DNA of 64,000 nt, taken from contig DMXO01000004.1 in NCBI GenBank assembly GCA_003482855.1, positions 141,464 to 205,463 on the forward strand, in the 5' to 3' direction. A program made the translations under genes and the position numbers. Source of the DNA: Candidatus Magasanikiibacteriota bacterium (lineage in GTDB: Bacteria; Patescibacteriota; Patescibacteriia; Magasanikbacterales; UBA922). Under the pieces are notes generated by a model, which saw nothing but the letters and a program-made list of their open reading frames with translations, did no database searches and was not told the origin of the DNA. This document shows positions 1 to 48,285 of the stretch, in pieces. How positions within the stretch are numbered: the first letter of the stretch is position 1; every line of letters starts with the position of its first letter.

Positions 1-2
1 TT

Positions 3-1150: not shown

Positions 1151-1162
1151 TGTTTTATTATT

Positions 1163-6458: not shown

Positions 6459-6546
6459 ATATTCATATATAAAATAAATAGTATTATACTGTACAGTTTT
6501 TCATGTATATTTGTCAATAAAAAAATATCTTTTTCAAGATATAAAA

Positions 6547-6828: not shown

Positions 6829-6954
6829 TTTATATATTTTGTCAATGGCAAAATCTTGAATATTTAGACAAATATTGATATTATAGCTATATAGTTATTC
6901 ACAAAATGTGAATAATTTATGTGATTTGTTTTTATCTAGTTTAATTTTAAATAT

Positions 6955-11242: not shown

Positions 11243-11752
11243 ATGTTTAAAAATTTTTTTGTTAGAAAAGGAAAAATGTCATTGCCAAGTTGGTTTTTTT
11301 TGAGTGTATTTTTATTATCATTTCTTGGCGCTATAAATGCGGTGTATTTGACGGTTGAACATTTCAAGCATGTAGAGACTGGTGCTGCTGTGGTATGTCA
11401 TGTCGAGATAATGGGGGATTGTAATCAAGTGTTGTATAGTAGATATTCAGAAATAGGCGCTGTGCCACTCGCACTGCTTGGCGTAGCATATTATCTGTTT
11501 GTATTTTCCGTAGCATTAATTCTCTATTTTAATAAAGAACGCTTGCTTTTTTCATTGTTGTCAGTTGTTACCTCATTTGGGTTTTTATTTAGTCTCTTAT
11601 TGGTATATTTGCAAATATGGGTATTGAGAGCAGTATGCCCTTATTGTATGTTTTCGGCATTAGTGTCGGTATTGCTGTTTGGTATAGACATTATATTTTT
11701 GGTAAAAAAGGAAAGTATAACAGGTAGGATAACTGAAGTTTTTCATCCATAA
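11243..11752 (+). CDS. Vitamin K epoxide reductase (VKOR) family membrane protein, putative disulfide-bond-forming oxidoreductase
   Basis: Loop cysteine pair (VVCHVEIMGDC) and CPYC redox motif inside predicted TM helix; about 4-5 TM. Confidence 0.55.
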   Translation: MFKNFFVRKGKMSLPSWFFLSVFLLSFLGAINAVYLTVEHFKHVETGAAVVCHVEIMGDCNQVLYSRYSEIGAVPLALLGVAYYLFVFSVALILYFNKERLLFSLLSVVTSFGFLFSLLLVYLQIWVLRAVCPYCMFSALVSVLLFGIDIIFLVKKESITGRITEVFHP

Positions 11753-21748: not shown

Positions 21749-21757
21749 ATATATAGT

Positions 21758-24030: not shown

Positions 24031-24032
24031 AT

Positions 24033-24431: not shown

Positions 24432-24432
24432 T

Positions 24433-25554
24433 ATGAAAATAGGTATTGATTGTCGCATGCTTTCTCCCGGATTTGGTTTGGGAAGGTATGTACAACAATT
24501 GGTAAAACATTTGCAAGCAATTGATACAAAGAATCAATATATTTTATTTTTGAAAGCTGACAATTGGAAGGAAGTGGAGGAGAGCGAGAATTTTAAAAAA
24601 GTTTTAACTGATATACCTTGGTATTCTTGGCAAGAGCAGACTAAGTTGAAAAAAATAATTAAAAAAGAGAATGTGGATTTGATGCATTTTCCACATTGGA
24701 ATGTCCCACTTAGTTACCACGATCCTTTTGTTGTTACGATACATGATCTCATTATGTATCATTTCCCGCGACCTCAGGCGACCACTCGGAGTAGAATTGT
24801 TTTTTGGCTTAAAGACAAAATACATAGAATGGTGATTCGTCATGCGGTAGAAAAAGCGAGCCGTGTTATTGCGACGAGTGAATTTACGAAGGGGGACGTT
24901 GTCAAAACTTTGCACATAGCTGAGAGTAAGATTACGGTGGTATATCAAGCGCCATTTGTTGATGATGCATATCGCGCATCACCTATCACGTATCACGATA
25001 TACAGAAAAAGTATAGCATTACTGAACCATATGTATTATATGTTGGGGCGGCATATCCGCATAAGAATTTGGAAAGATTGGTTGATGCGTGGAAATTATT
25101 TGAAGAAAAATATGGAGAAAATTATCAATTAGTTTTAGTTGGGAAAGAAGACTATTTTTATAAAAGATTAAAATCGGGGATCAAAGCTGGGGAGTCAAAG
25201 ATTATTTTTACTGGTTTTGCTTCAGACGATGAGTTGGTTGAATTGTACAAACACGCATCTCTGTATGTGTTTCCTAGTCTGTATGAAGGATTTGGGCTTC
25301 CTCCTCTTGAGGCAATGAGTTATGGTGTGCCCGTCGTCTCATCACATGCAAGTTGTTTGCCAGAGGTGCTTGGAGACGCAGCTGTATATTTTGACCCACA
25401 GAGCATAGAAAATATATGTTATACCATACAGCGCGTATTGGAGGATAAAGATATACAAACGATGTTGTTGCAAAATGGCAGAGAACGTATCAAAGAGCTG
25501 TCTAATATTCGTGGTGCCTCGAGTACATTAGATATATACAGGTCATGTATATAG
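24433..25554 (+). CDS. Glycosyltransferase family 4
   Basis: YEGFGLPPLEAMSYGVPVVSSHASCLPEVLGDAA. Confidence 0.8.
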   Translation: MKIGIDCRMLSPGFGLGRYVQQLVKHLQAIDTKNQYILFLKADNWKEVEESENFKKVLTDIPWYSWQEQTKLKKIIKKENVDLMHFPHWNVPLSYHDPFVVTIHDLIMYHFPRPQATTRSRIVFWLKDKIHRMVIRHAVEKASRVIATSEFTKGDVVKTLHIAESKITVVYQAPFVDDAYRASPITYHDIQKKYSITEPYVLYVGAAYPHKNLERLVDAWKLFEEKYGENYQLVLVGKEDYFYKRLKSGIKAGESKIIFTGFASDDELVELYKHASLYVFPSLYEGFGLPPLEAMSYGVPVVSSHASCLPEVLGDAAVYFDPQSIENICYTIQRVLEDKDIQTMLLQNGRERIKELSNIRGASSTLDIYRSCI

Positions 25555-35544: not shown

Positions 35545-36393
35545 ATGTATCTCACCCCCTCTCATCTCAAACAACTCTGCCAACAATATGATCTCACGCC
35601 GAGCAAGAAGTACGGTCAGAATTATCTTATCTCGCAGGCGCCTATTGAAAAAATGCTTGATGCATCAGGTATACAGTCAGGTGACAAGGTAGTGGAGATA
35701 GGACCAGGTTTTGGTGTACTCACGTTTGCATTATTAGAACGGGGGGCAGATGTTACGGCATTTGAGATTGAAAGAAAATTGGAACCATATTGGCAAGAAA
35801 AAAAGAAAATTGAAAAATTGAGGAATTTAGAAATTATATGGGGTGATGTTTTAAAAGAAATTCGATCCCCGATTAAATCGGGGACAAAATTCGAAATTCG
35901 AAATTTTAAAGTCGTCGCCAATCTACCTTATCAAATCACTTCCCATGTTCTTCGTACATTACTCGAATTGGACCATAAGCCAGAGAGTATCACGGTCATG
36001 GTACAAAAAGAGGTAGCAGAAAGAATCGTGGCAAAACCAGGTGACATGAGCATCCTCGCTGTGTCAGTACAGTATTATGGTACCCCCCATATTGTATGCC
36101 AGGTGCCAAAGGGGAATTTTTGGCCTTCGCCAAAAGTTGATTCGGCAGTTATACATCTAGATATTCAGACAAGCAATCACGCACATACGTTTACCGATGA
36201 AGAATTTTTCAAAATAGTAAGGAGTGGGTTTGCAAATAAAAGGAAACAATTGTGGAGTAATTTATCAAAAGGTTTATTTATTGAAAAAATAAAGGTACAA
36301 AAATTTTTGGTAGAAGTATGTGGCAATGAAAAAGTGCGTGCGCAAGAGCTTTCAGTAGAGCAGTGGATAACTCTCGTAAAGAAACTCACATAA
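35545..36393 (+). CDS. rsmA: 16S rRNA (adenine1518/1519-N6)-dimethyltransferase
   Basis: GQNYLI, VVEIGPGFGVLT SAM motif, NLPYQITS. Confidence 0.88.
   Translation: MYLTPSHLKQLCQQYDLTPSKKYGQNYLISQAPIEKMLDASGIQSGDKVVEIGPGFGVLTFALLERGADVTAFEIERKLEPYWQEKKKIEKLRNLEIIWGDVLKEIRSPIKSGTKFEIRNFKVVANLPYQITSHVLRTLLELDHKPESITVMVQKEVAERIVAKPGDMSILAVSVQYYGTPHIVCQVPKGNFWPSPKVDSAVIHLDIQTSNHAHTFTDEEFFKIVRSGFANKRKQLWSNLSKGLFIEKIKVQKFLVEVCGNEKVRAQELSVEQWITLVKKLT
35858..35906 (+). repeat. In-frame mini-insertion inside rsmA: hairpin tccccgattaaatcgggga flanked by gaaattcga repeats
   Basis: gaaattcga|tccccgattaaatcgggga|caaaattcgaaattcgaaatt encodes IRSPIKSGTKFEIRNFK. Confidence 0.7.
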
Positions 36394-36453
36394 TACTTTG
36401 TGGGTTTTCTCTTTTTTTGATATACTATACAGTACTAATGATTCCATAACACC

Positions 36454-37134
36454 ATGGAACAAAAACAAACACAAGTAGGTCTTTCGTCAGGGCAGAAGAC
36501 AGGTTTTGTCTTATTGCTTGTTTTTGCATTATTGACAGTTGGTCTCACATTTTTTCAAGTGAGAAATACTATATACTCGCCATTTGTGGTGAAAGTTGAC
36601 AAAGAAGCACTCGCAGCCAAGAAAGCTTTTGAATTTGATGAGACGACCCGTCTCCAACAAATCGACACTGATCATGATGGGCTCAATGATTATGAAGAAT
36701 TGTTTTTTTATGAGACAAGTCCCTATTTGCCAGATACAGACTCAGACGGGATAGAGGACAAAGCAGAATTGGATCAAGGTAAGAATCCGCTGTGTCCTGA
36801 AGGCAAAGCATGCGATTCGGCTGCGTTTGATGCTAGCGCCACAAGTAGTACAGAGTTTATTGTCTCTCCTTTACTTGATGATTCTCAGACAGCCGCAGAT
36901 ATTTTGGTCAATAGTCAACTGAGTGGTCAACTAAATACAGGAGCAAATGCTTTGGGCGCAGGAGTTGATTTTTCTTCTATGATTAGTGATCCTGCGGTGT
37001 TGCGCCAGATGCTCATCACAACAGGCAAAATTTCAAAAGAAGAATTATCTGCGATTAGTGATGAACAACTCATGCTCATGGCGCAACAACTTGCCAAAAA
37101 TCAATTTGGCGCCACGACGAGCACACCACAATAA
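36454..37134 (+). CDS. Membrane-anchored protein with thrombospondin type-3-like calcium-binding repeats
   Basis: N-terminal TM; DTDHDGLNDYEE and DTDSDGIEDKAELDQGKNPLCPEGKACD. Confidence 0.55.
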   Translation: MEQKQTQVGLSSGQKTGFVLLLVFALLTVGLTFFQVRNTIYSPFVVKVDKEALAAKKAFEFDETTRLQQIDTDHDGLNDYEELFFYETSPYLPDTDSDGIEDKAELDQGKNPLCPEGKACDSAAFDASATSSTEFIVSPLLDDSQTAADILVNSQLSGQLNTGANALGAGVDFSSMISDPAVLRQMLITTGKISKEELSAISDEQLMLMAQQLAKNQFGATTSTPQ

Positions 37135-37152: not shown

Positions 37153-40100
37153 ATGTTTGGATTACACAATAGGACAAAAAAAAGTATTCTTGTAGTACTT
37201 ACGGCTTTATTTGTATTGAGTAATCTTTTTGTTTTTTCATTGTTACGACCTATTCCTGTATATGCACAGATCACTATAGCAGGAAGTGTACCAGATGAAA
37301 AAAAGGAAATTGTGGATCAGATTCTTGATGCTCTTATGGCAGCAGCTCTTGGTGCTCTTGTGAATGGCGCATCATATTTCATGCGTAAATTTGCATATGA
37401 TAGTGCCAAATATATTGCATCAGGTGGCAAAGGACAGGGCGCTTTGGCTTTCAAAAAAGGGTTTGGCACTTATATGAAAGATGTTGCACTGGATAGTGCA
37501 GCAAGTGCCATAGATGAGTTTGGCAGTCCATTTGGTCTCAATTTGTGTAAACCGCCAGATATTCGATTGCAGGTAAATCTTCAGGTCAGTTTAAGTAGAA
37601 TTTATGACGCAGAATCAGGTTCAGCAGGCCCGCAACCACGTTGTTCATGGAAGAGTTTTACCGAGAATTGGAGCCAAGTAGACGAAATGTATGGAAGCCG
37701 GGATGCACTCTCTGAGCGTTTTTCTGCGTCTCTGAGTGTTACTGAGGGTGATTTTGGTACAGCGCTTGGGCTCATGGGCAAAGTAGATAGAATCAAGGCA
37801 CAAGCAGAAGCGGGAGCCACAGCTGAACGCAATGAAGGCGATGGTTTCAAGTCAGTACAAAATTATATATCTGGTGATATACAGACACCAGCCCAAGTTA
37901 TCAAAAAAGAAACAGATGCTGTAACAGGTGGCAAACAGATGGATTTGAGCGCCAATCAAATCGCCGGCATATATGGTGCTGGTGCATGGCAGATATTACC
38001 TATGGCAGCATCTGTTTTTGCCAATACGCTTGTTTCTACACTCTTGCAAAATGTCATGACCAACGGGCTTTTCCCTAGTTCAAAAGGAGGTGGCTCTGTA
38101 GTTGATTTTTATGCGGCAAATATCAATTACAACAGGCAAGCTGCTGAACGCGCGTTTTCGTATCTCATTGCAGGAGTGCCACAACATGATATTACCGCGT
38201 TTGATATTATTACTGAATTTAGTTCGTGCCCTGATACACCAAAGACATATAATTGTGTGATGGATCAGGGATTGGTACAGGCATTACAGCGTGAACGTGC
38301 CAATGAGACGCTCACTATTGGTGAGGCTCGTGTTATCGATGGGGGACTCATTCATGAAAATTGGCAGCTCATTCCACCAAGCCGCGACGTGGATAATTCT
38401 AATATTGATTGTTACAAAAATGCATATTGTTATTCAAATATACAAAAACTCAGAAAGGCGCGTATATTGCCACTCGGTTTTGAAATAGCAACCATGCGCT
38501 CAGACCCTGATAAGCCATGGACATTGGGTGCTGTACTCGATGGGTTTGGCGATCCCAATAGTCCATATTATCATCTCATTGACCCAAATTGGATTCTCAA
38601 AGCACCGCAGGCTCAATGTGAGATGACGGTGGATGGTCCTCAGCTTTTGTCAGAAAATACGCCAACAAGACAAGATGAATGTGCTGATTTTTCTACATGT
38701 CTTGCCGAAGGAGATGATGACAAGTGTATTGATTATGGATATTGTACTCAAGAGAAAAATGTATGGCATATACCGGGCGAAAGTTGTCCAGATTATTACA
38801 ACACGTGCAAGACATATACAAGCAATGACGGCGTTATTGCGTCATACTTGTCTCGCACTTTGGATTTTGGCACATGCAATGTCGAAGCAGTCGGGTGTCG
38901 TGCCTATAGTACAGAGATGACAGGGGATTTCTGGTTGCGCAGTAGTCAAGTTGATCTTGATCTCAAAGAGAGCGGTCGTGAACAGGTACTGTATTTCAAT
39001 AGTCAGATTGGAAGTTATACATGTCCGGTTGAAGAAGATGGCTGTAGTGAATTCACTCCCGCATCTTCTACCAAACCGCTTTATCTCCAAAAAGCGCCAG
39101 AATATTTAGGTTGTTATGATACTGACCCAGATACGCAAGATGTCATTGATTGGCCCCAGACCAAAGCAGATCTCGTGCTTCTTGCCAACACCCCACAAGC
39201 ATGCAACAAATACGCGAGTGTATGTATTCCTGAAGAAGTGGGATGTGAGGAATATAACCCAGTAAATGGCGGTACGACAATCAATGGAGTCGTAGGCAAT
39301 AATTTTTGTAGTTCACAATGTGTTGGATATGAAACATTCAAGCAAGAAGAGACGCCATTTGAACCAAACAAATTTCCATTATATTTTATTCCATCTCATG
39401 GTGATGTATGTGCTTCTCAATATGAAGGTTGTGATGAATTCACCAATATCAGCGGAGGAAACGCTGCAGAAAAGCTTGAGTATTACAGTGATCTCAAATA
39501 TTGCGAAAAGCCGGATGGCACCAATGACAAGACATATTATTCATGGGAAGGCTCGGAGAGCCAAGGTTATGTTTTGAAAAAACATGTATTATTGCAAGTT
39601 GATCAAAGTGAATTTACCAACTATTTGAGTGGGATTACCTTAGTATTGAGCGATGGCACATCACTCGGCGCTGGCAGTGTATTTACTGTTGGTTCGCCAG
39701 CATATTCAGTAGATACGCCAGAGCAGCTCGCGACTAAATACGAAAAATGTAATCAGGATGCATACAATCTCATGCTCGACGACCCATATGCGGATGGCGC
39801 TGCAATAGGTGGACCTGAAGGGTGTCATGCATTGTATGATAGCAGTGGTGAGATATATTATCGTTTTTTGATTGATACTATTTCAGTATCAAATGAGTGT
39901 GCTCCATTGCGCAAAACTAATTCCGATCTGTTTGTAGATTCTCATTTGAGTGGAGCAGGCAGACAGAGCCAGTGCGAAGCAAAAGGTGGTTCATGGGATA
40001 GTGCAAATAGCCAGTGTAACAGATGTTATAATGGCGGGTTTTACCAAAAAGATGATATCACAGGAGTTGGCGCTTGTGTGTATTGGTCCATACCAAGTGA

Positions 40101-43100
40101 AGCTGTATCTTGCCCGTCGAGTGCCAATCTGTGTCGTAGATATATAGGCAATACAGGTAGCAATGTATACAACATATATGATACAAGTTTTGAACCTGGA
40201 CAAAATGCGTCAACTACACTAGCCCTAGCAAAAGAAGGATGGACAGGCGTAGTATCTATTGAACCAGAGGCAACACATGTAGGTCAATATTCGCTCAAAG
40301 TAGGGGGCAATGGCAATACATCGTATGATTTTGCACCAGAAGTTTTGAGAAATAATGCATGGTATGAACTTAGTTTCTGGGCGCGTGGTAATCCACAAAC
40401 GCTTTCATTGCAAATTAATCAGGTAGGAGGTAGTCCTGCCATATTCACATATGATCCTCTCACCGGACAGAATGTATATGCGCCCATTACCACAGATTGG
40501 CAAGAATATACACTTGGTCCAATCCAGTTCACTGGTTCTTCTGGCGCGACTACTACATTAGAATTTATTCGACAAACAGGAAGTGGTGTATATTTCATAG
40601 ATCATGTCGTACTCAAACGTATTGGCGGGAATCCCGAGGACTATGTATTCCGTATCAAAGATTCATGGAAAACAGACGAAGGGTATGATGTGCCTGATGT
40701 GTGCGATTCTACACCGCTTGATGCATTTCCTGGCGAACAACTTGGGTGTCGTGCCTATACGACGCGCGCCACTCCGCCAGACAATATTGTCGCATTTACT
40801 GGATTTGAACGTCTATGTCGCGCTCAGGCAGTCGGATGTACACCGGTCGTGGATACTCAAAATATAGAGCGTGATGATACAGATGTGCACACAGCTTATA
40901 ACCTTTTATGTAAAGACGGATTGGCAACTGCTGCCATGGGTAATGCAAAAGATAAATGTTCAGTTTCTGTGGACAGCAAAAGTTATGAATGCGCGTATGA
41001 AAAAGGGGAAAGCAGTTGTTTTATTACTGGTCCTATACATATACCAGATGCGGAGATGACCAATCTCAATGTAGTTGATCTGGTCGATCGTTTGCATGTG
41101 GTCACATCTACTATCATGGTACCTCCAAACTCAGATACCCTGTATCTCGCGCATCGCACTGAGTTTGTATGCAGTAGCGAACATGTCGGATGTCAGAAGA
41201 TGGGACTTGAAGAACGGCTATTGCCAGATGAGAGTAGTGGTGCATATGCATATAGCCAAAAAGCATATATCAATAGTGCAGATCATTATGATGCGACATT
41301 GTGTACCCAAGAGCAGGTGGGGTGTAAAGAATACAAAAATAATGACGTGATTAGCTTTTTCAAAGATCCAAAGCTTGCTGGTGCAGGATTGTGCGTGTAC
41401 AAGCAAAATGTATCTGTAGGTGGTGTCACGCGTAATGGTTGGTTCATGGATGGCGTGGGCATGTGCAGTACTGGCGATCTGTGCAAGAATGATGAAGATT
41501 GTGGTGGACAGACGTGCAATGATATTGGACTGCAACCATGTTATAACGATTATATATTGCCGGGCAGCACCTATGGTCTATGGTCCAATGCAACTCCTAA
41601 TTATGAAGGATATGTAGGTACCTGCAGTAGTGAATACAATGGTTGTACTGAGCTTCTCGACCCCGCAGACACATCAGGTGGTGTTCAGCCAGATGGCAAA
41701 CCATATTATGTAGTGTTTGATGATAGACTGTTTGCCAAGACGGGCGACTGTGACAGCAAAGTAAGCCAAAAAGAAGGATGCGTACTTTTTGATCGTACTG
41801 AAAATCCAAATAAATATTTTAATTCTGCAGCTACGTATGCTGATAGTATTGCACAAGCGTATGCGCTCGTACCCACATTATCAACAGGTGATCTCGATAC
41901 CAATGAACTCATAAAAGTGGAGCGTGATCGTGAATGTAGTGAATGGCTCGCATGTCGTACTGCGACTCGCGTATTTGATACGCGTGGCAAGCCACAACAG
42001 CTTTGTCAGGAATACAGAGCATGCGATGAGATGGACGCGAGCGGCAACTGCACACACTGGGTTCGCACTGAGTACGACAACGAACGGCTCACCCACGAGA
42101 AGTATACATCTCGTACTGTAGGCTGGAGCAATCCAGATTATTCAGGTTATTCATTGTACAACAAATATAATATAAGCAATTTTGTTTATATTATATTCAG
42201 CAATGATATATTGAGAAAAGAAGGATCCGTTGATTTGGGTGTCGCGTATATTGCATACGAGATGGATCGCAAGATGTTTGTCTCTCCTGAAAATCTTGAA
42301 TCAGGTGAACAGAGACTTGAGGAGAAAGGTTGTTTTGAAGTTGTGAATAGCACGCCGGTAAAAGAAGAAGGGGCAGTATGTGGATTTGATAATGGTGGCA
42401 GGTGTTATCGCCAGAGATGCTTGTATCCTATAGATGGTGTGTTTGAGACCCAGCCAGCTGCATCTGCGCAAATACCAGACAAAGACGCGCGCGAGGCAGA
42501 AAACATCAAGCGCATACTTTCTGAACTAGAACATGGTATTTGCAAATCATATCCTGAACCAGACAGCCCATTTTCTGTGAATGCCACAGTTGCAGATGTA
42601 GATTCTGAGCGTGATGTCAAAAGTGATGACCCCGTAACCAAAACTCGCTATGAGTATTCTATGCGCTATCCTCAGTTTGAGCGCGCAAATATTTGCCAGG
42701 GCGGAGAAAATAGTCCGGACTGTTCATGTGATTATATCAAAATAGAATACAAAAATGGCACTATAGACTACTGGTCTACAACACAACAGGGGCAGTTTGC
42801 TGATGGCATATGTATTACAGCAGGAGAATTGGATGGCCAGCCGTGCGTCGTGAGCGAGGAGTGCAAAGGTGAAGATCCTTTGAGCGCTGGCGAATGCAGC
42901 AAGATAGCGCGCCAAGGTACGTATTACGGTCTCAAAGGGCTATGTCTTGAGTATGACAAGAGCCGTCCGCTTACGCCATCCAAAAATGTATCAAGCGATG
43001 CAGACAGATACCCCTGTCTTACTTGGTTGCCGATACAGACATCTGCCTCTGCAGGAGATCTCTACAACGCAGATGTGAAAGCAGGCTACTGGCCTGATGA

Positions 43101-46100
43101 AAATCTTGATGCCACAACGGGCGGCTTGTCCTATTGTCTCGAGAGTACAAGCTATGGAAGAGGATATTATGACACAGATTATACGACATTTACCGGCCCG
43201 CCCCTCACCGCTGTTTCAGGTATACATAATCTATCATTATTTAGTGCTACCAATTATGAGTTGGGTGGAGAATGTACTGCAGAAAATATAGCGTCATGCC
43301 CTACTGATAGCAATTGCATTGAGTCGTGTATAAATGAGTATTGTGATAATGAAGATTGTTCAAGCGGTATCGTGAATAGTGTTTCAACCGAATTGAGTGC
43401 ATTTAAAACAGAATTTGGCGCATGCGCAAATCAAGAGTGCGAAGCAAATGAGTTGGCAGAGTATGCAGTTCAAATTAGAGGTATATTTGATAGTAATGTT
43501 ACAGTTACCAGCTCAGAAGAGATTGCTACCTGTACACAGGGTTGTGCCCCAGTCCCTTCGTGTGTCAGTGGTTTTTGTGGTGAGACAGTTTCAGAATCAA
43601 AAACATATAGTAACATCTTTAATATAAATGATGATCTTTATAGTACTCCGGATGTGGATGTTCCATTTACCAATGAGTGGTGTAATAACGTTGATCCAAT
43701 TTCAGGAGATTGTATGGACGGGGGTGGTTGGAAACATTCCTATAATGTTCATATAAGCAGTTGTTATTCTGTAAGTAGCTTTAGTGTTGCTGAAAATTTT
43801 TTCTCCTTTGGTGTCGCTGGCCAAGGAGAAACTAAGTATTCAAGTTATACTCGGCTTATGAAGACTGACGACCCCGGCGATGTATTGTACAAGACAATGC
43901 AGTCATGGGCATGGAAAAATTTGGGTACCAATACGCGCATACTTCGTATTGATGAAAAAGGTGGTTGTTTCCCTAAGTACTTCGAGGAGTATGACGATAC
44001 AGACAGCCTACCTGAACCAGCCAAGAATGAGGATAATGTGTATGCTGTACATTCATTTGCTCCGGGCATAGACAACGGAGGCCCAGGCGATACAGGCACG
44101 CTCATGCATCCGCCACGTCGTTGGACTTCAGAATATGGGAACTATGCAGATGGTACAAGCTATAATTATTTCATGAATCCGTATATAGATACTCAGACTG
44201 ACTTTAAAATTGCAGAGACGAGCTCACTCTCACCAGATATCGATCCAAGCGCAAACCCATATATATATGTAGATACTGATGTTGAGCGTAAGCTCAATGA
44301 ATATGATATTGATAAAATATATTTCATACCGCTCTCATATCCAGATGGCGCAGAGGGACCAAACCCATCAATACTTACACCAAACTTTTCTATTAGTTTC
44401 AATGCTTTGCGCGCCAAGACACAACCCAAAGACAGATTTATTTTGGGTGATTTGGAAGAGGTTGGTGAAAATAATTTTATAGATTTTACTGAATCAATAC
44501 CTGAAGCGGGAGGGATGACCAATTACCAATACATGCTTGAACAAAAACCTGGCGCTACCAATGAATTACTTTCGTATGAGACATATAATGGCAGTATCGA
44601 CGACCCAACCTCTCGCGATGAGGTCAAGCGCCGCTATGTGGCTCTTGCATACAACAATCAAGGAGTCGAAGATAATAGAACAGAACACCCTTTCATTTTC
44701 CGTCAAGAAAATACACTTACCACATTTCCTGATGCTACGCACGATCCTTTCACTACTGCGTGTACGCATCATGACAACAATAACTGGATAGCCATAGGTC
44801 TTGACTTCAATGAAGATGGTGAATTCCTGGGATATATATCGCGTTGGTGCAATGGTGAAAATAATGATGATGGTGAACGAAATGGCATTAGATTCGCTGT
44901 CATAGCAGAGCTCAATGACAGGTGTACTGAGCTTGCCTCAGTCGTAGACAACACCGTATTGTCGAGTCTTATTACTGAGGATTACAACAAAGCATGGACC
45001 AATAGAGTATGGGCAAATGCATCGCAAAATTTCCCAGGATCCGGTTTTGGTGAGCTCAAACGCACAGAAGAGACAGATGTGGTTGGTCTCACTCCGTTTG
45101 GTTCGCTCGAAGGAGACAAAGTAAATAAGTCAAAGATTATAGGCTTTAATTCTTTACCAGTTTTGCAAAAAATATATCTTACGTATTATCTTCTTCCTGA
45201 TACCAAGCTCGGTGTGCCATACGCATGCACAGGCGGGTCTGTGTTTGATGGTTCGGGCGAACCTATATTTTCTGCATCAGGCTTTGGGTGCATAGGCATG
45301 GGAGACACTATCAATACCAATACGACGCTGACAAGCCAGGTATCTTCGCACACGTCTGGCAATGCGAATACGTTTCTTCGTAGCTTGTTCAAGAAATATT
45401 ATGCAGTATTTGATAGCGTCGCAAAGACAGATTCAGGCGCAGTAGACGATAGTAATAATATTGGAGACACCAAGCCTCCACAGGTGTTTGCACTCAATCC
45501 ATATACGTGTACGACTGCAGGCAAAGATTGTGTCGCGACGTTTGAGAATGCTTTCACAGTAAATAATAGAAACTATGTGGCAGGCGAGGCAGCGGATTAT
45601 GATGATAATGATGTGCTTGATGATGAAGATAAAAATTATAATGAGAGTCCGGATCCTATCATGGCAGACGGCAACATGCTTGCGACGGTGCAATTTTTTG
45701 GCTATGCAGACGACAACCGCATGCCGATACGTAGAGTCATGGTAGACTGGGGAGACGGCGAGCCTATTACCAATAATGAAGTGTACGGCATGTACAAAAA
45801 TAGAAAGCCGTATTGTAGTGCGGATGAAGTAATGGGTAGATGTTCTAGCGGTTCTGATTGGTCGCCGAGCAGTGATCCCTATCAGATTACTTGCAAGGAA
45901 GATGCTGATTGCGCATTTTTACTGCGTAGTACCAAGTGTGGCCAGATAAAGGATAATACTCTATATTTTGGCGACGCATCACGCGCATGCAAAGATACGT
46001 ACTTCGAGTTTAGTCATGAATATTTCTGTGATCTGGCTGATCTTACTGATCCACGAGGCGATGGCAGGCAGATCGTGTCTCTAGCTGAAATAAAAAACAA

Positions 46101-46428
46101 CAAAGATGGCAATGATAACGACCTGTTCGAAGATCTAGACTATGCACAGGAAGTATATGAACGTTTGTCTGAACGTGATCTCGCGCATATAGAAGAGGAT
46201 GACCAGAAACCGGCAGTGTGTATATTCAAGCCTCGTGTTCAGATACTCGACAACTGGAGATGGTGTAATGGGACGTGTAGTGGAGTGAGTGGGTGTTATT
46301 CAGATGGTTCTATAGATAAATGTGATCCAAATTTTGATGATAAAGGTAATACTTTTTATCCCTGGACAGAATATAAGGGTGCTATTGTGGTAATTCCTTC
46401 AGCGGGTACAGAAGAAGAGACTGATTAG
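37153..46428 (+). CDS. Giant (3091 aa) secreted cysteine-rich extracellular protein
   Basis: Signal peptide cleavage-like VYA-QI; well over 100 Cys; repeated E-x-V-G-C-x-x-Y module; acidic D-rich stretch; PKD-like WGDGEP near C-terminus; uninterrupted 9.3-kb ORF. Confidence 0.8.
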   Translation: MFGLHNRTKKSILVVLTALFVLSNLFVFSLLRPIPVYAQITIAGSVPDEKKEIVDQILDALMAAALGALVNGASYFMRKFAYDSAKYIASGGKGQGALAFKKGFGTYMKDVALDSAASAIDEFGSPFGLNLCKPPDIRLQVNLQVSLSRIYDAESGSAGPQPRCSWKSFTENWSQVDEMYGSRDALSERFSASLSVTEGDFGTALGLMGKVDRIKAQAEAGATAERNEGDGFKSVQNYISGDIQTPAQVIKKETDAVTGGKQMDLSANQIAGIYGAGAWQILPMAASVFANTLVSTLLQNVMTNGLFPSSKGGGSVVDFYAANINYNRQAAERAFSYLIAGVPQHDITAFDIITEFSSCPDTPKTYNCVMDQGLVQALQRERANETLTIGEARVIDGGLIHENWQLIPPSRDVDNSNIDCYKNAYCYSNIQKLRKARILPLGFEIATMRSDPDKPWTLGAVLDGFGDPNSPYYHLIDPNWILKAPQAQCEMTVDGPQLLSENTPTRQDECADFSTCLAEGDDDKCIDYGYCTQEKNVWHIPGESCPDYYNTCKTYTSNDGVIASYLSRTLDFGTCNVEAVGCRAYSTEMTGDFWLRSSQVDLDLKESGREQVLYFNSQIGSYTCPVEEDGCSEFTPASSTKPLYLQKAPEYLGCYDTDPDTQDVIDWPQTKADLVLLANTPQACNKYASVCIPEEVGCEEYNPVNGGTTINGVVGNNFCSSQCVGYETFKQEETPFEPNKFPLYFIPSHGDVCASQYEGCDEFTNISGGNAAEKLEYYSDLKYCEKPDGTNDKTYYSWEGSESQGYVLKKHVLLQVDQSEFTNYLSGITLVLSDGTSLGAGSVFTVGSPAYSVDTPEQLATKYEKCNQDAYNLMLDDPYADGAAIGGPEGCHALYDSSGEIYYRFLIDTISVSNECAPLRKTNSDLFVDSHLSGAGRQSQCEAKGGSWDSANSQCNRCYNGGFYQKDDITGVGACVYWSIPSEAVSCPSSANLCRRYIGNTGSNVYNIYDTSFEPGQNASTTLALAKEGWTGVVSIEPEATHVGQYSLKVGGNGNTSYDFAPEVLRNNAWYELSFWARGNPQTLSLQINQVGGSPAIFTYDPLTGQNVYAPITTDWQEYTLGPIQFTGSSGATTTLEFIRQTGSGVYFIDHVVLKRIGGNPEDYVFRIKDSWKTDEGYDVPDVCDSTPLDAFPGEQLGCRAYTTRATPPDNIVAFTGFERLCRAQAVGCTPVVDTQNIERDDTDVHTAYNLLCKDGLATAAMGNAKDKCSVSVDSKSYECAYEKGESSCFITGPIHIPDAEMTNLNVVDLVDRLHVVTSTIMVPPNSDTLYLAHRTEFVCSSEHVGCQKMGLEERLLPDESSGAYAYSQKAYINSADHYDATLCTQEQVGCKEYKNNDVISFFKDPKLAGAGLCVYKQNVSVGGVTRNGWFMDGVGMCSTGDLCKNDEDCGGQTCNDIGLQPCYNDYILPGSTYGLWSNATPNYEGYVGTCSSEYNGCTELLDPADTSGGVQPDGKPYYVVFDDRLFAKTGDCDSKVSQKEGCVLFDRTENPNKYFNSAATYADSIAQAYALVPTLSTGDLDTNELIKVERDRECSEWLACRTATRVFDTRGKPQQLCQEYRACDEMDASGNCTHWVRTEYDNERLTHEKYTSRTVGWSNPDYSGYSLYNKYNISNFVYIIFSNDILRKEGSVDLGVAYIAYEMDRKMFVSPENLESGEQRLEEKGCFEVVNSTPVKEEGAVCGFDNGGRCYRQRCLYPIDGVFETQPAASAQIPDKDAREAENIKRILSELEHGICKSYPEPDSPFSVNATVADVDSERDVKSDDPVTKTRYEYSMRYPQFERANICQGGENSPDCSCDYIKIEYKNGTIDYWSTTQQGQFADGICITAGELDGQPCVVSEECKGEDPLSAGECSKIARQGTYYGLKGLCLEYDKSRPLTPSKNVSSDADRYPCLTWLPIQTSASAGDLYNADVKAGYWPDENLDATTGGLSYCLESTSYGRGYYDTDYTTFTGPPLTAVSGIHNLSLFSATNYELGGECTAENIASCPTDSNCIESCINEYCDNEDCSSGIVNSVSTELSAFKTEFGACANQECEANELAEYAVQIRGIFDSNVTVTSSEEIATCTQGCAPVPSCVSGFCGETVSESKTYSNIFNINDDLYSTPDVDVPFTNEWCNNVDPISGDCMDGGGWKHSYNVHISSCYSVSSFSVAENFFSFGVAGQGETKYSSYTRLMKTDDPGDVLYKTMQSWAWKNLGTNTRILRIDEKGGCFPKYFEEYDDTDSLPEPAKNEDNVYAVHSFAPGIDNGGPGDTGTLMHPPRRWTSEYGNYADGTSYNYFMNPYIDTQTDFKIAETSSLSPDIDPSANPYIYVDTDVERKLNEYDIDKIYFIPLSYPDGAEGPNPSILTPNFSISFNALRAKTQPKDRFILGDLEEVGENNFIDFTESIPEAGGMTNYQYMLEQKPGATNELLSYETYNGSIDDPTSRDEVKRRYVALAYNNQGVEDNRTEHPFIFRQENTLTTFPDATHDPFTTACTHHDNNNWIAIGLDFNEDGEFLGYISRWCNGENNDDGERNGIRFAVIAELNDRCTELASVVDNTVLSSLITEDYNKAWTNRVWANASQNFPGSGFGELKRTEETDVVGLTPFGSLEGDKVNKSKIIGFNSLPVLQKIYLTYYLLPDTKLGVPYACTGGSVFDGSGEPIFSASGFGCIGMGDTINTNTTLTSQVSSHTSGNANTFLRSLFKKYYAVFDSVAKTDSGAVDDSNNIGDTKPPQVFALNPYTCTTAGKDCVATFENAFTVNNRNYVAGEAADYDDNDVLDDEDKNYNESPDPIMADGNMLATVQFFGYADDNRMPIRRVMVDWGDGEPITNNEVYGMYKNRKPYCSADEVMGRCSSGSDWSPSSDPYQITCKEDADCAFLLRSTKCGQIKDNTLYFGDASRACKDTYFEFSHEYFCDLADLTDPRGDGRQIVSLAEIKNNKDGNDNDLFEDLDYAQEVYERLSERDLAHIEEDDQKPAVCIFKPRVQILDNWRWCNGTCSGVSGCYSDGSIDKCDPNFDDKGNTFYPWTEYKGAIVVIPSAGTEEETD

Positions 46429-46524
46429 TAAAATAAAAAATCCTAAACTCTAAATCCTAAACCCTCCATGTTCGGGTCTAGGACAAATTCAAATTACGTA
46501 ATTCCAAATGCTTAAAACACAATA

Positions 46525-46552
46525 TAAAAAACTACCTATATGGTAGTTTTTT
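46525..46552 (+). terminator. Rho-independent terminator after giant gene
   Basis: aaaaaactacctatatggtagtttttt. Confidence 0.7.
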
Positions 46553-46557
46553 ATATT

Positions 46558-46588
46558 CCTGTACACATAAGTATTTGTGTACACAGGG
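46558..46588. repeat. Imperfect inverted repeat at boundary of GC-rich island
   Basis: cctgtacacataagtatttgtgtacacaggg. Confidence 0.6.
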
Positions 46589-46657
46589 ATTCTGCTCGCG
46601 GGCGCGCATGACTATGAGCTTCATCCCCCTCGATTGCCCCCGAGGATAGGGTGCCCG

Positions 46658-47176
46658 TCACTCGACGCGGACGAAGTGGATGGGCTCGGACGTGCTGTCG
46701 CCGAAGTCGACGTACTGGATCATCCGTCCTTCGGTGTCGAGGTCGACGACCCCGGTGACCCCGTCCTCCTCGATTCTCTCGAGCGGCACGGTCTCGCCGA
46801 TGAACACCCCGCGGAGGAGGGAGGGCTGCCCAGTGATCTCCACCTGGCACGTGCCCACCTCGAGAGGTGTCATGTTGACGACCACCTTGGCGTCCGACGC
46901 GGAATCTTCCCGCTTCCAGGTGGCGAAGAGGCTCGCCACGTGTTCGCAGGAGGTCCCGGTGAGGTCCTTGGGGTCGTCGATCGGCTCGACCGCGGTGTCC
47001 AGCGTGGACGGCGTCTCGGCGTCGGCCTCGACCGCGGTGTCCAGCGTGGACGGCGTCTCGGCGTCGGCCTCGGGCGTGATCTGCGGGGGAGCGTCCCCCG
47101 CGCCGGCGGCCTCACAGCCACTGAAGATGAACAGAGCCGCCGCCACGATGGCGGCGAGGAGCAGGTTGTACCGCAT
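46658..47176 (-). CDS. Lipoprotein with high-GC codon usage and 14-aa tandem duplication
   Basis: MRYNLLLAAIVAAALFIFSGC lipobox signal; GGAGG SD 5 nt upstream; GC3 about 75 percent; EADAETPSTLDTAV x2. Confidence 0.6.
   Translation of the reverse strand: MRYNLLLAAIVAAALFIFSGCEAAGAGDAPPQITPEADAETPSTLDTAVEADAETPSTLDTAVEPIDDPKDLTGTSCEHVASLFATWKREDSASDAKVVVNMTPLEVGTCQVEITGQPSLLRGVFIGETVPLERIEEDGVTGVVDLDTEGRMIQYVDFGDSTSEPIHFVRVE
46985..47068. repeat. Perfect 42-bp tandem duplication (x2)
   Basis: gaccgcggtgtccagcgtggacggcgtctcggcgtcggcctc repeated head-to-tail. Confidence 0.9.
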
Positions 47177-47224
47177 GGGTACCTCCTATGCCGCGCCCCG
47201 AGCCATCGGGGCGGTCGAAACGGT

Positions 47225-47470
47225 TGAAGCACTTGCGCGCGCCAGTCAGTAGAGTAGTTGTATAGTCTACTTGCTAGCGCGCGCAAAGTTTGTATATTTG
47301 CGCACCCGCGAGAGTTTATGCCACGTAAAATCACTTTGTGATCACGTGGCGAGCGAGTCTCTTATTCTAGCTATCAATAACAGACTCACGAAACCATCGC
47401 GTTTCCCGACTCAGTCGGGATACGTGATTGGAAAGAGCATCCACACGCCACTGGCGTATAGAATAGACAA
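47225..47470. repeat. Cluster of REP-like palindromes upstream of RAYT gene
   Basis: cttgcgcgcgc...gcgcgcgcaaag around caGTAGagtag...ctact; cccgactcagtcggg; acgccactggcgt; ccacgt..acgtgg. Confidence 0.5.
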
Positions 47471-47691
47471 AAAGCTTGAAGCTAATTATCCACTCTAATT
47501 AGACCACATTTTGGTCAAAAAGTCAAGGTCAAGACCGTAAACGTGGATAGGGTGTGGATATCTCTTTTTGGCTGTTCGAGCTATTCGGGTTATCTAGGCC
47601 ATCTGAGTTTTGTGAAATCAACAAAAGAAAAAATGGTAAATTTTATCTAAAATATGCTGTTTTCCAATCTAAACATGGTATAATAATCTAT

Positions 47692-48285
47692 ATGTATAGG
47701 AGGTATACTAGGAAAAGAAATCGTTTATTTGGTTTTGATTATAGAAACAGACGGTATTATTTTATTACCATATGTACAGAGGATAAGATGTCATTTTTTG
47801 GTGGTGTGTACAATGGAATTATGTGTGTGAACCGTTTGGGTTCGGTCATATATCGTCAATGGGAATGGTTGGAACAACAATATAATTACATACGGTTGTA
47901 TGGGTTTGTCGTAATGCCAAATCATGTGCATGGGATATTGGAAATCGTTGGACCGGAATCCGTAGGGACAGGTCGCGATCGTGGTATTCAAACGAATGTT
48001 GATAATGAAATGAACCGTGTAGGGACAGGTCTAGACCTGTCCCTACACGCGCCCGGTTCATGCAAAATATTATCATTATCACATATTATTGGTGCATTCA
48101 AAACAACGTCATCGAAACGTATCCACGAAATTGGGTTTTCACCATTCAAATGGCAACGGTCATTTTATGATAATATTATTCGAGACAAAATTGCATTTCA
48201 TAATATACAACGATATATTATAAATAACCCGCCGATGTGGCATCGTGACCGGAATAATCGCCTTGATTTTTATACCACAAATTGA
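47692..48285 (+). mobile_element. IS200/IS605-family HUH tyrosine transposase, RAYT-like (CDS)
   Basis: YYFITICTEDK ... MPNHVHGILEI (HUH) ... FKWQRSFYDNIIRD (catalytic Tyr region); about 35-aa GC-rich insertion after HUH; listed ORF from 47554 begins with non-homologous GTG-initiated upstream extension. Confidence 0.65.
47961..48058 (+). repeat. GTAG-headed GC-rich palindrome inside RAYT coding sequence
   Basis: gtagggacaggtc ... gtagggacaggtctagacctgtccctac (28-bp perfect palindrome). Confidence 0.85.

Follow-up and report, generated by a model that had tools for sequence, protein, structure and literature searches.

A lineage-specific, cysteine-rich giant exported protein of Candidatus Magasanikbacteria with a putative glycan-binding module

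CPR/Patescibacteria account for a large share of bacterial diversity, and attachment to other cells is their presumed way of life; to our knowledge, almost nothing is known about their contact molecules outside Saccharibacteria. The window analysed here, a 64,000-nucleotide stretch of a contig from one member of this group, Candidatus Magasanikbacteria, carries a gene that takes up ~9 kb in a genome of roughly 1 Mb, and its product is entered in GenBank only as a “hypothetical protein” of that organism (HAT03670.1). The first-pass annotation, made from the nucleotide letters, had proposed a secreted, cysteine-rich protein of no placeable family in a small-genome bacterium of the host-attached type. 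The affiliation of the organism agrees with the latter point, and Pfam and NCBIfam scans of the giant protein itself, which returned no match, agree with the former. The family has neither a name nor a Pfam or NCBIfam model, and no paper on it was found in the literature library searched. The features of the locus are collected in Table 1.

Table 1. Features of the giant gene and its surroundings (window positions; residues refer to the giant protein)
Feature	Residues	Position	Strand	Basis or remark
VKOR homologue, 169 aa		11243..11752	+	Pfam PF07884, E 5.7e-27
Terminator-like hairpin		36381..36408	+	Consensus scan only; directly after ksgA stop
TSP3 partner gene, 226 aa (HAT03669.1)		36454..37134	+	Pfam, translation, 69 orthologues
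Giant ORF	1-3091	37153..46428	+	3091 aa + stop codon, uninterrupted
Sec signal peptide (predicted)	1-38	37153..37266	+	Hydropathy and conserved -3/-1 positions
N-terminal helical region	39-345	37267..38187	+	Conservation, 47% mean identity
Domain A	346-530	38188..38742	+	AF2 and conservation, 53% identity
Cys-rich region 1	531-750	38743..39402	+	C-x6-C and C-x5-C pairs
Domain B	751-1000	39403..40152	+	AF2 model, pLDDT ~85-95
CBM4/9/16/22-like beta-jelly-roll (putative)	~1001-1170	40153..40662	+	Foldseek, Pfam in orthologues
Cys-rich conserved region 2	1171-1995	40663..43137	+	Conserved Cys in orthologues
Hypervariable, indel-rich region	1996-2550	43138..44802	+	Orthologue alignment
Conserved C-terminal region	2551-3091	44803..46425	+	Alignment, profile search
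Acidic Ca-loop-like stretch	2815-2835	45595..45657	+	Column counts, motif level
FF-x-x-ADDNRMPIRRVMVDWGDG block	2848-2871	45694..45765	+	Conservation in 46 orthologues
Palindromic hairpin, 16 bp, A and T run flanks		46521..46557	.	Consensus scan only
Convergent small lipoprotein gene, 172 aa		46658..47176	-	Lipobox L-F-I-F-S-G-C, iterative HMM search

A reading frame of this size in a metagenome-assembled genome, with a foreign-looking segment of 68% GC directly downstream, might be suspected of being the product of a chimera, a collapsed assembly or an overlooked frameshift. Four contigs from several sources, however, record the identical protein of 3091 aa, and independent fragments cover residues 1-1641 with 3 mismatches and residues 2188-3091 with 100% identity, so that independent assemblies recover the protein at 99.8-100%. 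More than 100 orthologues are collinear with it from end to end, tandem repeats were looked for in the DNA of the gene and none was found, and the GC-rich segment is a real gene that recurs at the corresponding place in most of the related genomes. An assembly artefact was thus rejected, its probability being next to nil, and the single long ORF described at first stands.

More than 300 orthologues of ~2800-3300 aa exist. A search with the giant protein gave 326 matches, the best 120 of which share 37-58% identity with it and measure 2700-3340 aa, a few shorter partial sequences aside. Relatives are found in 94 species-representative genomes, nearly all labelled Magasanikbacteria, and a search of IMG/VR viral contigs gave none. 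Architecture and length are conserved in the family, whose members align collinearly throughout. The gene is real and specific to this CPR/Patescibacteria lineage.

The N terminus is that of an exported protein by prediction. A KK n-region precedes a 20-residue h-region and a V-Y-A|Q cleavage motif; the hydrophobic segment (residues 10-32) reaches a Kyte-Doolittle 19-residue maximum of 2.55, and its counterpart in the family has a median of 2.35, with values of at least 1.6 in 82 of 87 orthologues. Among 91 sequences, the position preceding the predicted cut after Ala38 is alanine in 87, and position -3 is Ala, Val or Thr in 88. The protein is thus predicted to carry a canonical Sec signal with a conserved A/V-x-A signal-peptidase I site, as proposed at first. 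A second segment of transmembrane grade was sought by Kyte-Doolittle hydropathy and none was found, in line with the original description, the next most hydrophobic stretches being residues 52-76 and 268-300 (family medians of 1.08 and 1.31, respectively). The mature form is an acidic protein of ~336 kDa with a pI of 4.4.

Cysteines do run throughout the chain. The protein has 112 cysteines (3.6% of residues), and over 80% of a set of 91 sequences keep 92 of them at only ~40% sequence identity; all 77 within residues 1-2000 are essentially invariant. Orthologues contain 94-129 cysteines, and the count is even in 79% of them. The conserved cysteines would suffice for about 46 disulfides, with pairing predicted. 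Conservation and even counts, together with a VKOR homologue in the genome, are what an exported disulfide-bonded protein should display. The recurring E-x-V-G-C-x-x-Y module of the first-pass annotation proves to be part of a C-x6-C staple. Its six quoted instances are located at residues 579, 695, 1196, 1226, 1344 and 1388, and such motifs exceed the expectation from 2000 shuffles of the sequence: C-x6-C occurs 12 times against 4.0±1.9 (maximum 11), [VL]GC 7 times against 1.2±1.1 (maximum 6), and GCxx[YF] 7 times against 0.9 (maximum 5). The unit (..C-x4-[VD]-G-C-x-[AE]-[YF]..) is present in ~11 copies in the conserved core, and every C-x6-C site is retained in 87-91 of 91 orthologues. At the level of BLAST, internal repeats are absent from the protein.

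Compact domains follow one another in a line along the giant protein: a helical N-terminal region, two unmatched domains, a CBM4/9/16/22-like jelly roll, a second Cys-rich block, a hypervariable block and a conserved C-terminal domain with a DxDGDG acidic loop. AF2 models covered residues 36-1180 and 341-1000, and a reliable model is missing for ~45% of the protein (residues 39-345 and, in part, 1171-3091). The helical region contains two invariant cysteines, Cys132 and Cys164, and a conserved, Gly/Ala-rich stretch of 33 residues without a charged residue (268-300). AF2 renders residues 47-340 as long helices at a pLDDT of only 30-55, and comparison of the region with PDB sequences gave only non-significant matches, to helical proteins including coronavirus HR1 and OspC (E 0.27-1.3). 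Domain A, where conservation is highest, was modelled twice independently (pLDDT 84-92) as a mixed alpha/beta fold with a long beta-hairpin at its end, and includes the invariant polar residues Thr388, Asn429, Lys432, Arg434, Glu444, Arg506 and Asp512. Foldseek returned no match for it, the best E value being 0.2 in PDB and 0.12 in BFVD. Cys-rich region 1 follows with the C-x6-C staples 545/552, 575/582, 624/631 and 684/691/698 as well as C-x5-C pairs, and is poorly modelled (pLDDT 25-60). The beta-rich domain B, which also contains helices, lies between the staples 753/760 and 987/994, is confidently modelled over residues 755-1000, and likewise found no counterpart in either collection by Foldseek. 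As modelled, domains A and B are both well-defined domains with no known fold detectable in these two collections. Beyond the jelly roll, Cys-rich region 2 holds ~45 invariant cysteines, among them the C-x6-C pairs 1222/1229, 1340/1347, 1384/1391 and 1491/1498; Pfam and PDB searches covering the region gave no match other than that of the jelly roll.

That jelly roll, which the first reading does not mention, is the only recognisable domain and a putative glycan-binding module. Its model (pLDDT ~85-92) can be superposed on solved structures of CBM22, CBM16, CBM4 and CBM61 in PDB (Foldseek E 1e-7 to 1e-5, TM(target) 0.52-0.69), and these matches vanish once residues beyond 1000 are left out of the model. 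At the sequence level, Pfam CBM_4_9 (PF02018) matches 17 of 46 orthologues at E<=0.1, with a best E of 1.3e-5; one orthologue (P0003) scores 25.6 bits against the Pfam cut-off of 25.9, the window copy has no match, and a PDB profile search adds faint matches to xylanase CBM4. The assignment to the CBM4/CBM9/CBM16/CBM22 group is putative and drawn from fold and weak sequence similarity. Modules of this type normally accompany catalytic domains in CAZyme architectures, whereas here no catalytic CAZyme domain stands beside the module, which makes up only ~5% of the protein.

The block that follows Cys-rich region 2 departs from the conservation of the core, its identity being 18-30% against 42-53%. 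Within it, the window protein has the longest insert of the family at residues 1995-2250, which measures 256 aa and contains 16 Cys, where the median is 107 aa and 1 Cys is typical. Conservation returns in the C-terminal region, the last ~315 aa of which form a domain that is always found at the extreme C terminus. A profile of this region, run against 1.84 billion representatives, matched 999 clusters at 50% identity with E<=1e-3; of these, 745 reach E<=1e-10 and 230 reach E<=1e-30. Among the 150 best, almost every match is located at the C terminus or no more than ~30 residues away from it. The region has no recurrent Pfam match among orthologues and no PDB sequence match. The acidic string DYDDNDVLDDEDKNYNE at residues 2815-2831, first described as Ca-binding-like, belongs to a stretch with the family consensus D-Y-[DN]-G-D-G-x-x-D-E-D...D-G-x-P-D (Asp2826 in 39 of 46 and Glu2825 in 37 of 46). 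By this consensus it is, at motif level, a putative Ca-loop of the DxDxDG type, and to that extent the description holds; the Pfam profiles TSP3_bac and EF-hand, however, match neither the giant protein nor the C-terminal thirds of 46 orthologues, and in the window copy the consensus glycines are replaced.

The most conserved C-terminal signature is the FF-x-x-ADDNRMPIRRVMVDWGDG block, in which Phe2848, Ala2852 and Pro2858 are invariant and Trp2866 is found in 45 of 46 sequences. It ends in the WGDGEP (residues 2866-2871) that had been taken as PKD-like. Across the final ~315 aa, motifs follow one another (..V-x-V-D-W-G-D-G.., ..F-x-H-x-Y.., ..V-x-V-x-D-N-W-G..) in an order that is suggestive, since it resembles the PKD consensus. 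Every profile test (PF00801/PF18911) was nevertheless negative: the window protein (E<=1), the C-terminal thirds of 46 orthologues (E<=0.1) and eight cores from which the Cys-rich insertions had been spliced out (E<=10) gave no PKD match, and a PDB sequence search of the region gave none either. The profile searches do not support the PKD reading.

The immediate neighbours of the giant gene, a TSP3 partner upstream and a convergent lipoprotein gene downstream, are both absent from the first-pass annotation. The partner protein has an N-terminal membrane anchor and two TSP3-type Ca-binding repeats (DTDHDGLNDYEE and DTDSDGIEDKAE) as well as a C-x6-C, and its C-terminal tail is helical; columns are conserved among 69 orthologues; Pfam finds TSP3_bac (E 1.7e-5) and, weakly, EF-hand_5. 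Its gene ends 18 nt before the giant gene and lies directly upstream of it in all 76 loci that have upstream DNA, a synteny that indicates linkage rather than physical interaction. The hairpin behind ksgA suggests that the two genes form their own transcription unit, and the palindromic hairpin on the other side is likely a bidirectional terminator common to the giant and lipoprotein genes.

The lipoprotein gene reaches 68% GC (GC3 0.92) inside a window of 39% GC and includes a 42-nt tandem repeat at 46981-47072. The window copy begins MRYNLLLAAIVAAALFIFSGC and fits the lipobox pattern [LVI][ASTVI][GAS]C; in a set of 42 sequences (the window and 41 related loci), an equivalent lipobox is found in 29 by regular expression and in ~35 by eye, and iterative HMM search identifies a homologue, one ORF per locus, in 32. 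The protein is hypervariable and a sequence orphan when searched against 5.8 billion proteins, and GC3 of its gene is 0.63-0.92 in genomes of 32-47% GC.

The VKOR-like gene, a candidate that could supply extracytoplasmic disulfide oxidation, is a true member of its family, but it lies 26 kb upstream, unlinked, and so is not adjacent to the giant gene as had been stated. The wider neighbourhood is rich in envelope-glycan genes, among them sugar transferase, GT1/GT4, DUF4012, DUF11, DUF4015 (GH-like), MBOAT, AlgX-like, PMT_2, GT2 and D-Ala-D-Ala carboxypeptidase. Synteny extends to 13-18 loci for the DUF4012-DUF11 pair and to 44 for the GH-like DUF4015 gene.

Comparison with known giant surface proteins yields likenesses of design rather than of sequence. 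Adhesins of the Bap/LapA/SiiE type and RTX adhesins consist of arrays of tens of near-identical Ig-like repeats, are nearly free of cysteine and vary in length. The giant protein is like them in size, acidity, export, Ca2+-binding motifs and a ligand-binding module placed inside a long extender, and differs in having no BLAST-detectable repeat, 112 cysteines and a conserved length. In the window, neither a T1SS signal nor T1SS partner genes were noticed. By Pfam, Ig-like, cadherin, FG-GAP, RTX, beta-helix and YD/Rhs domains are not recurrent in any of the three thirds of 46 orthologues (FG-GAP gives single matches in 1 of 46 only). The length variation expected of a variable repeat adhesin is not borne out either; with no internal repeat and with variation confined to residues ~1996-2550, that class was rejected. 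The SPEARE proteins of nanohaloarchaea (8880-9409 aa), which are membrane-anchored, extracellular proteins of ultrasmall episymbionts, combine tandem Ig-like/fibronectin-like domains with a VirB4/TraG-like ATPase and differ between close genomes (PMC10266531). They share with the present protein a very large size, acidity, Sec export to the surface, a small-genome organism presumed to be host-dependent, a proposed role in host contact and the standing of a conspicuous, lineage-specific genome feature. The giant protein nevertheless has no SPEARE domains and no sequence relationship to them, and is collinear across ~100 species and defined by a conserved disulfide scaffold. The large disulfide- and Ca-stabilised matrix proteins of eukaryotes (fibrillin, VWF/mucin-type; PMC10806136), which owe their mechanical integrity to many conserved disulfides in short, repeated Cys modules and to Ca-binding motifs, provide a functional analogy only: the present protein is bacterial, its recurring unit is a C-x6-C staple of roughly 15-25 residues rather than a domain, and Pfam detects no EGF, TB, VWD, C8 or TIL domain in it or in 46 orthologues.

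On balance, we see an even chance that the giant protein is a surface adhesin or scaffold, specific to the lineage, that binds glycan and is stabilised by Ca and by disulfides. The role is one that we infer, because the protein consists mostly of domains matching nothing known; attachment to a sugar-coated surface is the most likely one. The protein would be exported and then oxidatively folded outside the cytoplasm, with an oxidant that the VKOR homologue of the same genome could supply. Once the signal has been cleaved it would have no anchor of its own, and we infer that the membrane-bound TSP3 partner, perhaps with the lipoprotein, might hold it on the cell surface. There it would work as a rigid, Ca2+- and disulfide-stabilised structure whose jelly-roll module binds glycan, whose hypervariable block sets partner or host specificity, and whose conserved core serves as stalk and as interface with partner proteins. 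Two observations sit less easily with an adhesin: no adhesin family domain was detected, and the conservation of residues 39-2000 together with the invariant polar residues of domain A would suit an enzyme or machine component better than a typical adhesin, which evolves fast.

The same features may be read in other ways. The protein might be a structural part of the organism's own wall or surface layer, with a jelly roll that binds the surface polysaccharide of the cell itself, and might span or organise the envelope instead of touching a host. A collinear gene with a strongly conserved core throughout the lineage, set amid envelope-polysaccharide genes such as the syntenic DUF4012-DUF11 pair and flanked on both sides by genes for membrane-bound partners, is what such a scaffold would look like. 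A hypervariable block of ~550 aa and a hypervariable lipoprotein, by contrast, would be unexpected in a pure housekeeping scaffold, Pfam finds no SLH, LysM, PG-binding or S-layer domain in the window protein or 46 orthologues, and S-layer proteins are usually Cys-poor; we consider a self-directed scaffold somewhat unlikely. The conservation and polar residues of domain A, the habitual pairing of CBM4/9/16/22-type modules with catalytic domains and the syntenic GH-like DUF4015 gene would accord with a surface-tethered enzyme, in which domain A or another conserved block would be catalytic and of a new kind, such as a hydrolase or lyase acting on glycan or cell wall, and would be directed to its substrate by the CBM-like module, for breaching a host wall or scavenging nutrients. 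Such an enzyme is decidedly unlikely: no hydrolase, lyase or peptidase family is recognised by sequence or fold, the best PDB fold match carries a probability of only 0.06, 3000 aa and ~46 disulfides are more than an enzyme requires, and the invariant residues could equally make a binding site.

The free N-terminal helices, finally, recall a host-membrane-active effector or translocon, likened to a pore-former or fusion protein, in which these helices and residues 268-300 would insert into the host membrane and the remainder would be a targeting stalk. The long AF2 helices, the uncharged conserved stretch and the faint profile matches to coronavirus HR1 point that way, as does Foldseek, which aligns the model at length but weakly with Cry toxins and with the B components of binary toxins. 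These alignments, however, have an rmsd above 20 Å and a TM of ~0.2 and arise from shared jelly-roll and beta-rich content; the HR1 matches are non-significant, confidence in the model of the helices is low, and residues 268-300 fall below transmembrane grade in 88 of 91 orthologues, all of which makes this proposal very unlikely. A bolder version of the preferred adhesin or scaffold, which we regard as rather unlikely, is that the giant protein, the TSP3 anchor and the lipoprotein form a lineage-defining surface organelle made largely of previously unseen folds. Residues 1996-2550 and the lipoprotein would then be its specificity parts, and a targeted process would maintain both their hypervariability and the elevated GC3 of the lipoprotein gene, e.g., antigenic or host-range variation driven by recombination or biased conversion.

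The protein would be of more modest interest were it no more than a wall scaffold. Its level of cysteine conservation is in any case rare among bacterial exoproteins, and the two well-modelled domains with no known fold are targets for structural biology. The putative glycan-binding module can be expressed and tested, and the hypervariable block could report host range. The share of the genome it occupies, its collinearity in ~100 species, the conservation of its cysteines and its constant Ca-binding membrane partner make the giant gene a defined candidate, across an entire lineage, for part of the apparatus of the envelope or of the host interface.

The giant gene is a single unbroken open reading frame, as the first-pass annotation had held for this 9.3-kb stretch. 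The identical 3091-aa protein is found on four contigs from several sources and has the GenBank record HAT03670.1 (“hypothetical protein”, Candidatus Magasanikbacteria). Other assemblies contain fragments that show 3 mismatches over aa 1-1641 (99.8% identity) and 100% identity over aa 2188-3091, and the gene contains no tandem DNA repeats. These observations rule out an assembly artefact, and the probability that the reading frame is artefactual is regarded as negligible. The mature protein has a mass of 336 kDa and a pI of 4.4, with 447 acidic residues (D+E) versus 239 basic residues (K+R), and the claimed richness in cysteine is borne out by 112 Cys (3.6%). The reading of a signal peptide with no further transmembrane segment is also upheld. 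Residues 10-32 form the sole segment with transmembrane-grade hydropathy, and the next most hydrophobic segments, aa 52-76 and 268-300, lie below the transmembrane threshold in nearly all orthologues. Among 91 aligned orthologues, the residues that follow aa 10-32 present A, V or T at position -3 in 88 and Ala at position -1 in 87, which marks a predicted canonical signal-peptidase I site after A38. BLAST detected no paralogue of the giant protein in the window.

Features of the giant-gene region and of the giant protein (nucleotide positions are those of the window; aa, residues of the giant protein)
Feature	Position	Strand	Description
Intergenic GC island	6545-6835		62% GC, ~290 nt, without meaningful ORF
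VKOR homologue	11243..11752		E 5.7e-27; 26 kb from giant gene
Glycosyltransferase gene run	20330-25554		precedes DUF4012/DUF11 pair
DUF4012 gene	25652..28237	+	861 aa
DUF11-containing gene	28274..30349	+	691 aa
Partner gene	36454..37134	+	226 aa, directly upstream of giant gene; gap 18 nt
Giant gene	37153..46428	+	3091 codons
Probable palindromic terminator	46521-46557		between giant gene and convergent lipoprotein gene
GC island	46526-47375		contains lipoprotein gene
Lipoprotein gene	46658..47176	-	172 aa; convergent
42-nt tandem repeat	46981-47072		2.2 copies, 98% match; in lipoprotein gene
Transposase-like ORF	47554..48285	+	243 aa
Perfect palindrome	48016-48049		15-bp stem
Conserved core	aa 39-1995		39-53% identity
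Domain A	aa 346-530		
Domain B	aa 755-1000		
Predicted jelly roll	aa ~1000-1170		CBM4/9/16/22-like
Hypervariable, indel-rich block	aa 1996-2550		18-30% identity
C-terminal part	aa 2551-3091		moderately conserved

Among 5.8 billion proteins searched, 326 relatives of the giant protein were found. The 120 relatives listed share 37-58% identity with it and span 2700-3340 aa, save a few shorter and apparently partial sequences; only a few of these 120 bear a name, in almost every case “hypothetical protein” with a Magasanikbacteria or Patescibacteria MAG as its source. With one genome per species in GTDB, 94 genomes encode a relative, nearly all of them labelled Magasanikbacteria. When 1.84 billion representatives were searched with a profile of the last ~315 residues, 999 clusters (50% identity) were matched. 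In the best 150 of the 999, the matched proteins are ~3000-aa proteins or obvious fragments, and the match ends within ~30 residues of the C-terminus in nearly all. No relatives turned up among the viral contigs of IMG/VR, and no literature on the family was found. These proteins make up a large, collinear, lineage-specific family. We also note that some co-assembly MAGs with the giant gene, and many Magasanikbacteria-type cluster records (L012, L013, L019, L020, L027 and others among the related loci), are titled “uncultured Gammaproteobacteria bacterium”, as is OZ246405.1, a one-chromosome record of 1.23 Mb. These titles look like placeholder taxonomy by the depositor and not true occurrence in that class.

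Alignment of 91 giant-protein sequences divides the conservation profile into three parts, namely a conserved core, a hypervariable block and a moderately conserved C-terminal part. Within aa 1995-2250 the insert of the window copy is the longest of all; it measures 256 aa and holds 16 Cys, compared with a median of 107 aa and typically 1 Cys. The orthologues contain 94-129 Cys each; 92 of the 112 in the window copy are kept in more than 80% of the aligned sequences, and those in residues 1-2000, 77 in number, are all essentially invariant. Such a conserved cysteine count in an exported bacterial protein points to roughly 46 structural disulfides. A VKOR homologue had been proposed as an adjacent source of disulfide chemistry; the gene is real and shows that the genome has the means of oxidising exported cysteines, but it is not adjacent, and linkage to the giant gene is not implied.

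The E-x-V-G-C-x-x-Y module described earlier does recur, with all six quoted instances present, and it is conserved. It corresponds to the latter half of a C-x6-C staple with the consensus C-x4-[VD]-G-C-x-[AE]-[YF] rather than a repeated domain. C-x6-C occurs 12 times in the giant protein versus 4.0±1.9 in shuffles, [VL]GC 7 times versus 1.2, and GCxx[YF] 7 times versus 0.9. Each site retains both cysteines of the staple in 87-91 of the 91 orthologues. The distance between them is preserved in 79-91 at the eleven core sites and in only 21 at the C-terminal site 2786/2793. Profiles built from one copy weakly detect the other copies, and BLAST self-comparison revealed no internal repeat. Alignment by hhalign of the two Cys-rich halves, aa 36-1000 and aa 1001-2000, recovered only a ~50-aa staple unit at 3% probability. 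The recurring unit is, as judged from these patterns, a short staple.

The first-pass annotation could place the protein in no family. This holds for the window protein in Pfam and NCBIfam, neither of which matches it; the one exception in the protein is a predicted CBM4/9/16/22-like jelly roll. When each third of 46 orthologues was searched with Pfam, only CBM_4_9 (PF02018, 17 of 46) and Endotoxin_C (3 of 46) were matched, and in both cases the match fell on the jelly roll. PDB sequences searched by profile, with the complete protein as well as with its separate thirds, returned nothing beyond faint matches to xylanase CBM4 and non-significant helical matches. Two AlphaFold2 models, each built on 25 homologues, are confident (pLDDT 85-95) for domain A, domain B and aa 1000-1170, and poor for the helical aa 39-345 and the Cys-rich aa 531-750. 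Foldseek matches of model 1 in the PDB consisted mostly of CBM jelly rolls, of CBM22, CBM16, CBM4 and CBM61 (E ~1e-7, TM(target) 0.52-0.69). Model 2, which ends at aa 1000, lost every CBM match and yielded nothing below E 0.1 (best PDB E 0.2, best BFVD E 0.12). This locates the CBM-like module downstream of domain B, where a jelly roll is predicted by the model and supported by the sequence matches. Long Foldseek alignments of model 1 to iota/CDTb and Cry toxins were rejected at rmsd >20 Å and TM ~0.2. No other part of the giant protein is as conserved as domain A, in which T388, N429, K432, R434, E444, R506 and D512 are invariant.

The C-terminus includes a nearly invariant FF-x-x-ADDNRMPIRRVMVDWGDG block and presents the motifs VDWGDG, F-x-H-x-Y and V-x-V-x-DNWG in this order. 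The WGDGEP signature, which had been read as PKD-like, is present at aa 2866-2871; however, no PKD match was obtained with the window protein, with 46 orthologues, or with eight cores from which the Cys-rich insertions had been spliced out. The order of motifs recalls a PKD sandwich broken by Cys-rich insertions, which we treat as a lead and not as a finding. Sequences in the PDB gave no match to the C-terminus either. The acidic, Ca-binding-like stretch that had been reported is located at aa 2815-2831, where the family consensus D-Y-[DN]-G-D-G-x-x-D-E-D corresponds to a DxDxDG-type loop, although its glycines are replaced in the window copy.

The partner gene lies directly upstream in all 76 related loci that have upstream DNA. 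Its predicted product starts with a membrane anchor, carries two TSP3-type Ca-binding repeats and ends in a helical tail. In 66 loci the gene before the partner gene is ksgA, and a terminator-like hairpin at the end of ksgA suggests that partner and giant gene probably form one operon. The wider neighbourhood contains many envelope-glycan genes. The DUF4012 and DUF11-containing genes encode a pair of large, exported-looking proteins, and the two genes keep synteny with the giant-gene block across 13-18 related loci. Downstream, the C-terminal third of the 243-aa ORF resembles REP-associated tyrosine transposases/IS200-like Y1 transposases (NCBIfam E 9.5e-13; Pfam Y1_Tnp weak), and L007 and L010 also have homologues on this side of the giant gene. 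The perfect palindrome lies inside this ORF, just 5' of the transposase-matching part, and the annotated ORF may thus overstate the length of the gene. Type IV secretion-like genes (TrbL_3, PrgI, TraC-like, VirB4/DUF87) in L005 (20695-28850) and 23S_rRNA_IVP/bAvd-like four-helix-bundle genes in L001 (22654-23040) and L003 (6009-6383) also lie near the giant gene; their presence there is not conserved from locus to locus and is probably a coincidence.

The convergent lipoprotein gene has 68% GC versus 39% for the window, and its GC1/2/3 values of 0.67/0.46/0.92 compare with 0.51/0.43/0.34 in the giant gene. At least 29 of 42 sequences (the window and 41 related loci, including L001, L003, L007, L009, L010, L037, L055, L062, L073 and others) have a lipobox ORF at the equivalent position, GC-rich although the genomes are AT-rich. 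Its GC3 is 0.63-0.92, with one copy at 0.46 (median 0.74 versus 0.31 in the adjacent giant gene), and it is the strongest or sole GC island in ~27 of 46 loci. Iterative HMM searching joined one lipoprotein ORF per locus in 32 of the 42 sequences. The lipobox, the codon periodicity (GC3 >> GC2) and the single homologue per locus speak against both a chimeric join and a structured RNA conserved in nucleotides without an ORF, and we read the GC-rich segment as a real gene for a putative lipoprotein. Against 5.8 billion proteins the window copy matches only itself, a sequence orphan owing to fast divergence among the homologues. Its tandem repeat, which encodes a duplicated EADAETPSTLDTAV, is the only one within 36.4-47.6 kb, and no DGR-type template repeat of the gene was found in the window. 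Long overlapping ORFs (46577..47227 and 46680..47252, +; 46870..47334, -) are by-products of the scarcity of stop codons in GC-rich DNA; gene callers chose + strand ORFs at the corresponding spot in L003 and L005.

Elsewhere in the window, the intergenic GC island has a predicted RNA fold of -153.5 kcal/mol (z = -5.5 on the + strand, -5.7 on the - strand). It matched no Rfam family at E<=1 and contained no tRNA or tmRNA, and it is a candidate for an unannotated structured RNA.

The giant-protein system combines a conserved export signal, a cysteine scaffold, a module of glycan-binding type, a hypervariable block and two membrane-bound neighbours, one of them invariant. We give about even chances to a reading in which the giant protein is exported, oxidatively folded and held at the surface by the partner proteins, as it would have no anchor of its own once the signal is cleaved. 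It would then form a rigid structure, stabilised by Ca2+ and disulfides, that serves as adhesin or scaffold; the jelly roll would bind glycan, and aa 1996-2550 would set specificity.

A core this strongly conserved speaks against a classical, fast-evolving adhesin and leaves room for two further readings. An envelope scaffold aimed at the cell's own surface is the likelier of these, though we consider it improbable; an enzyme tethered at the surface, in which domain A would be a new catalytic domain, is distinctly more doubtful. A membrane-active effector acting through the N-terminal helical region would be the least expected role, with slight probability. For the partner-held adhesin or scaffold, functional resemblance is found to giant proteins on the surface of other ultrasmall symbionts and to the repeat adhesins of ordinary bacteria. 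As an example of the former, the nanohaloarchaeal “SPEARE” proteins combine Ig-like arrays with a VirB4-like ATPase (PMC10266531) and have no domain in common with the giant protein. Repeat adhesins likewise share no domain with it and are Cys-poor, in contrast to the non-repetitive and Cys-rich giant protein. The giant protein belongs to no described family, its only match to a known group being the predicted jelly-roll fold of the CBM4/9/16/22 type, and we would place it among the giant surface proteins of prokaryotes that have small genomes and depend on a host.
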